The position numbers were made by a program. A DNA stretch of 64,000 nt, from positions 4,823 to 68,822 of the forward strand of contig JAGFIU010000002.1 of the NCBI GenBank assembly GCA_024103355.1. The letters run 5' to 3'. Positions 6,001 through 9,000 of this stretch are shown one piece after another. The stretch is from Bacteroidota bacterium (lineage in GTDB: Bacteria; Bacteroidota; Bacteroidia; NS11-12g; UBA955). Numbering within the stretch: the stretch's first letter is position 1; every line of letters begins with the position of its first letter.

Positions 6001-9000
6001 GGTGATGGTTATTAACTCTTGATTAAGCTGACGGAAAACAAAGTTTAATGTCCTGCTTTTGTTCAGATTTTCTAGTACCCTCGTTACGGTGCTTTCTTCA
6101 CTTTCTGTACTTGTGGTGCTGGTTTCGGTGTTTACTTCTACCTTTCTATTGCTTACAGATTTTTGCGTTTGTTTGCTCAAAGCTCTGTTGAGGGTTTTGA
6201 TGCTTTCTTCTCTTTCGCTATTGGTTGTTTTACTGTAACTAGCGGAAGCACTTACAGAAATTTTTGGCAAGGGCAAACTCAATCCACCACTAACTTTTTT
6301 GGCAACATTGGTGCTACTTTTTGTATGGGTATTACTTTCCTGTTCTGCAATGGTTTCTAAATCACTTGCACTTTCATCACTAAAGCTGTCTAGCACATTT
6401 TGAACATCTCTTTTGTTAGTTACTGTCTGCTTATAAGTTTTGATAGAAATAGTAGTTTTTTCACCAGGTAACAAGGAGAAAGTTTTAACCGTTTCTCCTG
6501 CTCCGTATCTACCTAAATAGGTGTTTACTCTGTAATGTTCTACTATGGTAATTTCAGGTTTTACAGTGGCAGGTTTTGGTCTGAATTGGATTACATTGTG
6601 TCCTGCCAAGTTGGTTGTAATAACGGGCATTGCATTTTTAGATAGCTCAGCTACCTGATCAACAGGCATTCCTGCCACTTTTATATCAAGCACTGGACCG
6701 GTTGGCACTTCGGCAAGTGTTAAGGTAGCTGCATCAGCAATATTTACCAATGGGCTTACAGAAAGCTGGCTTACTTCAGTACCCATACTGGCAGGTGCAG
6801 TGGCTACAACGCCTGCAAAGCTGTTGGCAATATTGGCTGTAAGTTGTACTGTGTCAATTGTCTGAACTTTGTCGTAATAGCTTTCGCCACTTGGTGGGTG
6901 ATTCGTATAATTAGGCTTAAATTTTCCAGCATCAACAGGTACAGGCAGGTACACATTGGCAACAAAACTTGTGGTTTGGGGAAGGTTGTAATTCAAAATG
7001 GGCAGATTTTCACCGTTACCAAGCTTAATCATAGGCTTAGGGTCGAGGCAGGATGAATTTTCTGGCATAATTATTTGTTTTAAAATTGTTTAACGGTATT
7101 TTATTGTTCAATATTTGATTTCTTGTGTCATTTTTTTGGGTTTAGGTTCTAAGGTTCTGACTAACGTCCGTCATATTTGCAAAGCTTACTTAATAAAATT
7201 ACTAAACTTCCCATTCACAATGTGCCAAAAATAATGCAAAAGCTTTGAAAACAAATACTTTGTTTTTCTTTTATACACCTGAAAACATTCTCAAACCTTT
7301 ATCCGTAGCCGGTTGTTGTAATTTTGTGCAACGGGTTGCAGCTACTCGAAGGTTGCGATTTAGAAGCACTTCACTGTCAACCAAGCAGAAATTTGGGTAG
7401 TAACACAAAGCTTGATTTAACCACTGAACCGCCACTTTTGGGTAGGTGCTGTTATAGGGCGTTTTTCTTGTTAATTGTTCATTTGTCAATGTCGTTTTGT
7501 TGTCAAATTTTATTCTACTTACCAAGTCCGTATTTGTCAACCGCTGGTTGTCCCCATATATTGTCTTTAACTCTGTAGATTGTTTCACAGTCTGTTAATT
7601 GTCCGCATATAGGGTCAGGTTGTCCCCAAGCGAAATTACAAGTACCAATTTGTTTCCCGTCTTTGTCGTAAACTGCACCTCCTGCGTCATAAGCATTCTG
7701 TCCTGCACTGTAAACTGTCTGCCCGTTGTGTTTACATTCACTAATTTCTCCGTTTTTGTAGGTCTTGTAAAGTTTCTTTAAAGTCTTTTTGTTTTCAAAG
7801 TCGTTTTTCTTACAACTCGAAATCCCTATTGACAATATCATTGTTATTGTCAAAATGGTTAAAAGTTTAATTTCCTTTTTCATATTGTCTGTCGTTTTTA
7901 AATGCCCTATAACTTCCGTCCTATTTACGAAGGTTGCATAATAAAATTACTAAACTTCCCATTTACAACGTCCCAAAAATAATGCAAAACCATTACAGTT
8001 AAAAAACAGAACTGCAACTTTTGCAAATATGACAGTTAGTAATCCGACTTTCTCCTATCGTAATTTAATATTATTACAGATTCTTTAAAAAGTTCTCTTC
8101 TGATATAATTTCAAGCGTTGATCCTTTTTCTATAAGTTTTACTGCCTTTTCTTGTTTACTGCTCATTCCGTCATCGCCAACAACCCTATAATCTTGTTGT
8201 CCAACAATTAAAAAGTCTGTGTCTTTTGTAACACTATTCCCAATTATTCCACCAATATCAGCAATAGTTTGTTGGGCCTCTGCACGAACCATTGAAGATA
8301 ACGCACCAGTAAAAACAACTGTCCTACCGTAAAAAATACTGTCAGGATTATGTTTTGTTGGGTCTCCAACAATTTTTGTCAGATCTTTTGCTTTATAAAT
8401 CCTTTTTGTTTCGGATGGTCTGTAACCACCGTCATAAAGTTGTCCAATTGTTGTTTTGAGTTTTTCAGAAAAGTCGTCAATTGATGAAACACCTGCTATT
8501 CCAAACGCCTTTAAAGTTAGTTCAGCAGTTGCTCTACTGTCAGTACCTGCTCTGTGATGTTTTAGATCAATACTATTTACTTTACAAAGCGTTTTTAAGT
8601 CGTAAGAAGGAAGTCCTTGCCAAACCTTTTTAGAAAAAATATAACTACAAGAATAGTTTAAGGTCGGAAATGGTAATTGATATGTTTCAAGTGTCCTACG
8701 TAAAACACTAATGTCAAATCCTGCATTATGAGCAATTAAAAACTTGTTTTCAATAAGAGGTTTTATTTCAGTCCATAATTCGTTGAACTCTGGTTTGTCC
8801 GCTACGTGTTCGGGTCTAATTCCGTGAATTAAAATATTAAAATAGTCAAATTCATCATACTTTGGTTTGATTAACCAAGATCTAGTATCAACTATTTGTC
8901 CGCCCTCAACAAATGTCAATCCAATTTCACAAGGACTGTCTCGCTGTGCAGTTGCCGTTTCAAAATCTATTGTAATAAAGTCCATTTTTTATTGTCATTA

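Follow-up and report, generated by a model that had tools for sequence, protein, structure and literature searches.

We analyzed a 64,000-nucleotide (nt) stretch of DNA, here called the window, from contig JAGFIU010000002.1 of an uncultured Bacteroidia lineage from activated sludge, and focused on a gene for a lipoprotein of 122 amino acids (aa) and on the DNA around it. The preliminary description had placed the gene in a 463-bp integron cassette that was bounded by a perfect 10-bp inverted repeat and had entered at GTT by recombination. Read in the direction of the gene, the cassette is ordered as leader, open reading frame (ORF), R'' box, palindrome body and terminal G, and it lies between a host-specific repeat (T1-B) and a unit called motif M. 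The features are as follows, with a slash marking a junction.

7332-7912, minus strand: putative whole cassette of 581 nt, from the TT after the upstream crossover G (7913) through the G (7332) of the next GTT
7914-8037, minus strand: T1-B, the upstream partner site, a host-specific 124-nt repeat with AAC...G/TT bounds
7900-7913, minus strand: R'-type core GTTATAGGGCATTT; G 7913 belongs to T1-B and the other 13 nt open the cassette
7884-7899, minus strand: short 5' leader AAAAACGACAGACAAT from the core to ATG, kept in homologous cassettes as ...TTTAAAACGACAAACAATATG
7515-7883, minus strand: 122-aa lipoprotein gene (ORF call), whose product has a signal peptide, an ISSC lipobox (Cys24) and four other conserved Cys
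7451-7466, minus strand: R''-type core AAAAACGCCCTATAAC, complementary to the cassette start
7333-7450, minus strand: attC-like site body of ~120 nt, with left arm AGCACCTACCCAAAAGTGGCGG, variable loop, right arm CGCAACCTTCGAGTAGCTGC and spacer AACCC
7330-7332, minus strand: crossover triplet GTT, which closes the site at its 3' end; the cassette finishes with G 7332, and TT opens motif M
7253-7331, minus strand: motif M, the unit after the cassette, which starts with the TT of the crossover triplet and recurs at 48288-48368 behind the palindrome of a second island

We consider it quite likely that the lipoprotein gene rides on an integron-type mobile cassette, in which a single ORF precedes a folded recombination site of its own, ~130 nt long. 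The boundaries of the unit, the circle-type complementarity of its ends, a site structure with covariation and the arrays of such sites elsewhere were all demonstrated.

On the plus strand, GTTATAGGGC at 7451-7460 has its exact reverse complement, GCCCTATAAC, at 7904-7913, so the perfect repeat described earlier is present. The complementarity extends to 14/15 positions (GTTATAGGGCgTTT vs GTTATAGGGCaTTT). The single exception reads as an A/C mismatch on the gene-sense strand, and the opposite strand forms a G-T wobble there. Inverted core triplets are present in GCCCTATAAC (7460 to 7451, minus strand) and as GTT at 7332-7330 and 7913-7911; compared with the strict RYYYAAC/GTTRRRY consensus, the core boxes fit at the AAC/GTT triplets only. 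The 10-bp repeat alone is no more than chance would give, and its weight comes only from comparison. Perfect 10-nt inverted pairs not more than 600 nt apart numbered 125 in the 64-kb window vs 77 +/- 13 in block shuffles, and the 10-mer with at most one mismatch occurred 6 times in the window vs 2 expected. The repeat had been called the strongest single sign of recombination; by itself it is within chance, and it gained its meaning once loci were compared. The pair GTTATAGGGC/GCCCTATAAC bounds lipoprotein homologues in L145 and L146 and unrelated cassettes in L026, L033 and L069, where it encloses unrelated ORFs of 258 aa and 476 aa (L033 and L069) and one further unit (L026).

More than 20 loci with homologues of the lipoprotein (57-92% protein identity) were compared with the window by blastn in gene orientation. 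The nucleotide homology began at 7913/7912 in L001-3, L006, L007, L010, L012, L013, L145, L146 and L148, and the upstream DNA was unrelated. An alignment by eye showed unrelated upstream sequence up to GTT, followed by GTTATAGGGCATTTTAAAA...ATG in all loci. At the other side, the homology ended at 7443-7453 in L004, L007, L012, L013 and L148, and ran on to 7329-7332 in L009 and L147, two of the closest relatives. The L009 match spans 8011 to 7332 and is sharp only from the GTT at 7913, and the L147 match spans 7907 to 7329. The flanking genes were different in every lipoprotein locus fetched, so that homology starts and stops at the cores with different neighbours, as expected for the unit that the preliminary description had proposed. 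A contig from an RNA library (X25), ~96% identical to the window, has other upstream sequence and diverges exactly at 7913. The cassette start GTTATAGGGCATTTTAAAA also recurs behind differing upstream DNA in L012, L013, L014, L009, L026, L033, L069 and L145, and the R'' core is kept as GAAAAACGCC(C/T)TATAAC in L004, L012, L013, L014, L145 and L146, with divergence immediately after AAC.

Because L009 and L147 share the palindrome body up to the next GTT, the mobile unit would be 7332-7912. Thus, the recombination-type boundaries at GTT claimed earlier were found, and the size of the unit changes from 463 bp to 581 nt. Between the window site and that of L009, the loop has diverged and the arms are retained.

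We also compared the ends of cassettes with each other, using the 12 bases after GTT (cassette start) and the 12 bases before AAC (cassette end), with the AAC and GTT columns mapped by hmmalign. The two ends of one cassette (n=74) matched at a mean of 8.6/12 positions, and 64% of these pairs had at least 9 matches. The boxes flanking the same palindrome (n=151) matched at a mean of 4.6/12 (3% with at least 9), and non-cognate pairs (n=5326) at 4.7/12 (2% with at least 9). Such complementarity of cognate ends is the signature of a site that integration divides and that is complete only in the circle. The complementary cognate cores of the 74 cassettes agree with the earlier claim that both cores of one cassette form one stem in the circle.

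The attC-like palindrome occupies 7332-7466 (~130-135 nt), with a consensus stem of ~16-20 bp. On the minus strand from 7466 to 7330, it consists of the box AAAAACGCCCTATAAC, the arm AGCACCTACCCAAAAGTGGCGG, the loop, the arm CGCAACCTTCGAGTAGCTGC, AACCC and GTT, in this order. Its length falls within the attC range (about 57-141 nt), and it has an inner L''/L' stem with a variable loop. A stringent site pattern matched at least 120 metagenome contigs, and a profile search (nhmmer) returned 226 sites in 125 loci, with E=3.6e-40 for the window site. The sites are very abundant, uniform in length (about 121 nt between the pattern ends) and conserved in arm sequence across many environments, including sludge, lake, soil and mat metagenomes; GTT is present in 211/219 sites and AAC in 169/179. 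Related loci contain co-oriented arrays of 3-7 sites, with up to 7 in 9-11 kb (L028, L125 and L134), and L004, a Chitinophagales metagenome-assembled genome, has three site copies behind unrelated genes, one of which is 84% identical to the window's.

Across 170 distinct sites, sixteen stem pairs were retained in 95-100%, and compensatory GC/TA and GC/CG swaps occurred; this covariation count is partly inflated by two large subfamilies. For the fold test, the window site was joined to the cassette's own start, which rebuilds the circular form, and was compared with 200 shuffles. The strand opposite the gene (bottom) gave one long hairpin of -26.1 kcal/mol (z -3.9), and 0/200 shuffles were as good; the gene-sense (top) strand gave -19.6 kcal/mol (z -1.7). 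In the bottom-strand hairpin, 4 nt bulge out on one side, one G is also bulged, and the A/C mismatch of the top strand is replaced by a G-T pair. Rfam searches of the whole window at the gathering threshold and of 6900-9400 at E<=5 gave one tRNA only, and the palindromes matched no known RNA family; the attC covariance model of IntegronFinder is absent from Rfam. The lipoprotein gene was absent from all 120 metagenome contigs fetched for the site pattern.

At position 11 of the paired boxes (window 7461/7903), the cassette start systematically carries A in many cassettes, and the reverse-complemented R'' carries G. The resulting asymmetry, A/C in the top strand vs G-T in the bottom strand, is a possible strand-choice signal. 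A cassette with two genes was found at 6989-7990 of L004. It encodes a 179-aa protein and a barstar-like protein, a toxin-immunity-like pair in one cassette; its ends GTTATAGGTAAGCTTA and TAAGCCTACCTATAAC, which differ in sequence from those of the lipoprotein cassette, match at 15/16 positions, and it adjoins an insertion sequence (IS) element inserted in the array.

Four elements of the following mechanism are inferred: which recombinase acts, which strand it uses, where exactly within GTT it cuts, and that T1-B drives expression. GCCCTATAAC would be the R''-type box just behind the gene, and GTTATAGGGC the R'-type box that was moved to the other end of the cassette by integration. In the excised circle, the two boxes would flank the palindrome body and pair into an outer stem of 14-15 bp. 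A tyrosine recombinase of the IntI/Xer-like group would recognise the folded strand, most likely the one opposite the gene, and strand exchange would occur at the GTT/AAC triplet. The circle would have inserted beside the GTT end of T1-B, and the lipoprotein gene is probably transcribed from the -7 box of this host-specific repeat.

Among the 120 attC contigs, four have IntI1-like tyrosine recombinases adjoining the sites. The recombinase gene is upstream of and co-oriented with the sites in L050, L114 and L042, and divergent and adjacent in L051. The best NCBIfam models of these array-side recombinases were TIGR02249 (integron integrase) and NF040815 (Xer/integron-integrase), which scored within about 3 bits of each other. 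With TIGR02249, the proteins of L050, L114 and L051 scored 175-224 bits, below the cut-off of 265, and matched in two stretches; the scores on NF040815 were above the cut-off. The array-side recombinases appear to have 7-29 residues in place of IntI1 residues ~205-255, which we take to be the IntI additional domain. The recombinases of L050 (9867-11585) and L114 (1311-2540) also have N-terminal extensions of about 100-290 aa, with no Pfam match, which precede the SAM-like and catalytic domains.

Several results weigh against the integron-type cassette. Neither the 64-kb window nor any of 22 lipoprotein loci searched contained an IntI1-like ORF. Judged from their sequences, the array-side recombinases appear to be without the IntI additional domain, which is treated as essential for recombining folded attC sites (PMC8138268). 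The window contains a single site of this family, a lone cassette with no array, and T1-B, the supposed partner site, folds weakly (z about -2 on either strand). Contigs of eight sludge metagenomes, at low depth, contained no empty site, excised circle or presence/absence polymorphism, and none of them had a T1-B-to-M joint. Finally, most homologues carry a different palindrome body, so that either a module of ORF plus cores was re-assorted with the body or the two diverged beyond recognition. As to the integron cassette claimed earlier, the locus is integron-like rather than a demonstrated classical integron, given that no integrase was found in the window and the array-side recombinases appear to have no IntI additional domain.

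Three further observations concern the comparison of occupied and empty sites. X14 has no contigs over 7470-7904, a gap that is uninformative on polymorphism at ~4x depth and with other gaps present. Contigs with an identical exonuclease gene end inside T1-B, which is a repeat-induced break. In the relatives whose Mrp protein is 96% and 90% identical, the DNA is 74-77% identical, and no empty-site comparison was possible for the cassette.

The differing palindrome bodies are not predicted by the classical single-crossover model, and they keep alive a minority reading with short duplex sites. The pdif (Xer) modules of Acinetobacter plasmids are gene units between short inverted recombination sites, each of 28 bp with two 11-bp arms around a 6-bp spacer. 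If the locus worked in this way, the mobile unit would be the ORF between the inverted cores (7451-7913), the extent given in the preliminary description, exchanged independently of the body. The unit resembles pdif modules in its short inverted bounds, its varied contexts and the Xer-like recombinase. In agreement with this, L004, L007, L012, L013, L014, L145, L146 and L148 lose homology at the AAC core and carry a body of a different type, and the array-side recombinases, which lack the extra domain of IntI, exceed the cut-off of the Xer/integron-integrase model. However, L009 and L147 keep the same body up to the next GTT, and that body is a covarying hairpin with strand asymmetry, which duplex sites would not need. 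We found no 28-bp two-arm (11-6-11) site at the junctions ...GGACGGAA/GTTATAGGGC and ...GCCCTATAAC/AGCACCTACCC. Unlike in pdif modules, a large covarying hairpin lies between the units and the end complementarity is cassette-specific; it is found between cognate ends and not around the same site, which fits a site reconstituted across the body. A duplex system of this kind is therefore unlikely in our judgment.

The repeat T1 was found only in this lineage and has five copies in the window. T1-B is bounded by AAC...G/TT, has imperfect dyad arms (18/22) and contains a TAnnTTTG -7 box at 7974-7981 that is oriented toward the lipoprotein gene. The summed contig depth over T1 in four activated-sludge metagenomes was 20-35x that of flanking single-copy DNA. 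Further T1 copies, present at the depth of the organism itself, part from the window at 7909-7916 and 8037, and the sequences beyond them read like typical cassette starts, e.g., GTTAGCAGTCATGGTAAAAGAC. The same T1/M junction 41 kb away holds a different cassette, with a 479-aa gene and its own palindrome, and for this reason T1 looks like a preferred docking site that would also supply the promoter, perhaps in a role analogous to attI/Pc. T1 was also considered as a strong hairpin and was rejected as such by its z of about -2 on both strands.

With its AAC...GTT bounds and dyad arms, T1-B could itself be the cassette's own site, since the geometry is formally symmetrical. The site would then be read on the plus strand (7914-8037), with 7452-8035 as the unit and the gene in inverted orientation to its site. 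This arrangement is improbable, as L009 and L147 share the C-type body but not T1, which is confined to this lineage and, in the T1-B copy, folds weakly. The junction ...GCCCTATAAC/AGCACCTACCC also lies behind an ORF in the same orientation in L033, L069, L056 and other arrays.

The palindromes could instead be elements like miniature inverted-repeat transposable elements (MITEs) or repetitive extragenic palindromic (REP) sequences that insert into terminator-like palindromic targets, in which case the inverted repeat would be a split target. Their high conservation, uniform length (about 121 nt) and great abundance are in line with such elements, and the joined cores would resemble a terminator stem followed by T's. 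However, an element inserted into an existing target would leave complementary boxes around the same palindrome, and those boxes matched at 4.6/12, the random level, vs 8.6/12 for cassette ends. In the window, the box across the palindrome is GTTGCACAAA, not GTTATAGGGC. The high cognate complementarity, with the same-palindrome boxes at the random level, thus led us to reject insertion of a palindrome into an existing target, and the comparison of same-site with cognate boxes largely refutes this model, to which we give very little credence.

A chance repeat around an ordinary, vertically inherited gene with conserved untranslated regions is the least credible alternative, since, common as 10-nt inverted pairs are in this AT-rich window (125 vs about 77), it is refuted by more than 10 loci in which the neighbours are unrelated and sharp breakpoints coincide with the cores, and it is at odds with the same 10-mer pair around unrelated genes and with the gene at 60-90% identity in Chitinophagales, Bacteroidales, Ignavibacteriales and Sphingobacteriales records.

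The integron-type cassette can be set beside known systems. Integrons are the textbook gene-capture device, and their cassettes (above all those of sedentary chromosomal integrons such as the Vibrio cholerae superintegron, with ~125-nt VCR sites) resemble the present one in that the ORF is followed by an imperfect palindrome of ~130 nt, the inverted cores end in AAC or begin with GTT, and the cassette start is complementary to the core behind the ORF. Co-oriented site arrays in related loci, a covarying stem and unequal folding of the two strands are further likenesses to attC. Unlike the diverse attC sites of mobile integrons, the site arms here keep a conserved sequence over many environments. 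Pairing of the cores extends over 10-19 nt instead of 7 nt, and where attC usually has an unpaired spacer and single extrahelical bases, the present site has an asymmetric bulge of 4-5 nt. Integrons also differ in the additional domain that the associated recombinases here are without. Some integrons have an integrase that is co-oriented with the cassettes (the 'inverted integrase' type, e.g., in Treponema denticola). L050, L114 and L042 are like them in having a recombinase upstream of and co-oriented with the sites; those integrases keep the additional domain, whereas the recombinases here are without it and, in L050 and L114, have the long N-terminal extensions. A single cassette with its site away from an integrase corresponds to what IntegronFinder terms CALIN or a lone attC. 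The insertion at the GTT of a non-cognate sequence is like the insertion of cassettes at secondary sites (bioRxiv 10.1101/2022.09.11.507474); unlike a random secondary site, the target here is the multi-copy, promoter-bearing T1, which precedes typical cassette starts elsewhere in the organism.

The host phylum is also unlike typical integron hosts, as it is nearly integron-free in RefSeq surveys: IntegronFinder 2.0 reported only In0 elements and one complete integron in Bacteroidetes (bioRxiv 10.1101/2022.02.28.482270), and reviews merely list Bacteroidota among the phyla in which integrons were detected (PMC8618304). In the literature on the site sequence, DUF6970 and Bacteroidota integron-like systems, we found no description of the site or of such arrays.

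The cassette belongs to a large integron-like cassette pool in Bacteroidota. A wider proposal, which we hold only tentatively, is that Bacteroidota (and Ignavibacteria) have their own gene-capture system parallel to integrons, with conserved ~130-nt sites, long cassette-specific cores and IntI-like recombinases that never had or have lost the additional domain. In the present host, single genes would dock at dispersed, promoter-bearing T1 repeats of ~20-35 copies, each acting as a portable attI-plus-promoter, and would be expressed where they landed. The locus provides a clean, checkable cassette with all sequence hallmarks of integron-type mobility. If the proposal is true, standard tools overlook a large stock of mobile genes in a phylum that is dominant in the environment and the gut, the handling of folded DNA by a simpler recombinase becomes testable, and many conserved 'hypothetical proteins' are explained as read-throughs of these sites. 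T1 adds the idea of dispersed docking sites with promoters instead of one array.

The cargo of the cassette has a signal peptide and lipobox, MKKEIKLLTILTITMILSIGISSC, with ISSC at residues 21-24 in line with the lipobox pattern [LVI][ASTVI][GAS]C. Among 138 homologues at 52-90% identity, the few named records are labelled Bacteroidales, Chitinophagales, Ignavibacteriales or Pedobacter, and L007 is from the cultivable Pedobacter arcticus A12; no protein identical to the exact window sequence was on record. C24, C50, C82 and C93 are invariant and C99 is near-invariant, with Cys24 checked in 42 homologues. The match to DUF6970 was weak (21.2 bits vs a cut-off of 27, E=2.6e-4) and did not reach the gathering threshold. 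Since several homologues carry a precomputed PF22311 match, a distant relationship to DUF6970 is likely. The AlphaFold model (pLDDT 84.8) has one helix packed on a beta-sheet, and a search of PDB folds with this model gave no match at E<0.4, the best being E 0.49. The lipoprotein is predicted to be small, exported and disulfide-bonded, with an alpha+beta fold.

Contigs from metatranscriptome libraries of digester and sludge (X25, X28 and X33) cover window 7417-7913 and carry cassette variants that are 95-97% identical. One of them extends beyond the ORF, across the R'' box, and reaches 7417 within the palindrome; this suggests read-through transcription of the site, although it may also stem from DNA carry-over.

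The second island of the window (48355-48506, with the gene at 48507-49946 on the minus strand) encodes the 479-aa protein, which has weak NERD/Card1-like nuclease matches (E about 0.007). Its palindrome differs and ends in GCCGCAAAACAGTT, like C-type 3' ends, and its end boxes match at 9/15 positions only. Near the lipoprotein cassette, contigs in X1, X2 and X5 join 7332 back to 7163, i.e., they go back 170. From these joins, the M and T1-A unit exists elsewhere in tandem, in circular form or with M next to T1. The 7332-to-7163 junction reads CAAC/AACG, which is one triplet beyond a simple G/TT exchange.

The cassette lies within a block at 2800-9205 that contains a transposase remnant, a five-gene operon, the cassette and an exonuclease-BRCT gene, and that is missing at the syntenic place in L152 and L154. 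The nearest relatives on record are syntenic from 9205 onward, a position immediately upstream of the DUF6787 gene. A 74-aa ORF at 2804-3028 on the plus strand, at the island's left edge, by eye only is like the C-terminal end of an IS4/IS5-type DDE transposase; it is the nearest transposase-like remnant to the cassette.

ORFs of 57-105 aa cross the conserved site in the window (7271-7588, minus strand) and in L056 (661-891), L062 (3119-3310) and L069 (2844-3017), with peptides such as KTPYNSTYPK(V/G)...(L/F)NQAL in common. These ORFs are artefacts that reflect the conserved DNA, and false families of 'hypothetical proteins' could be seeded by them.

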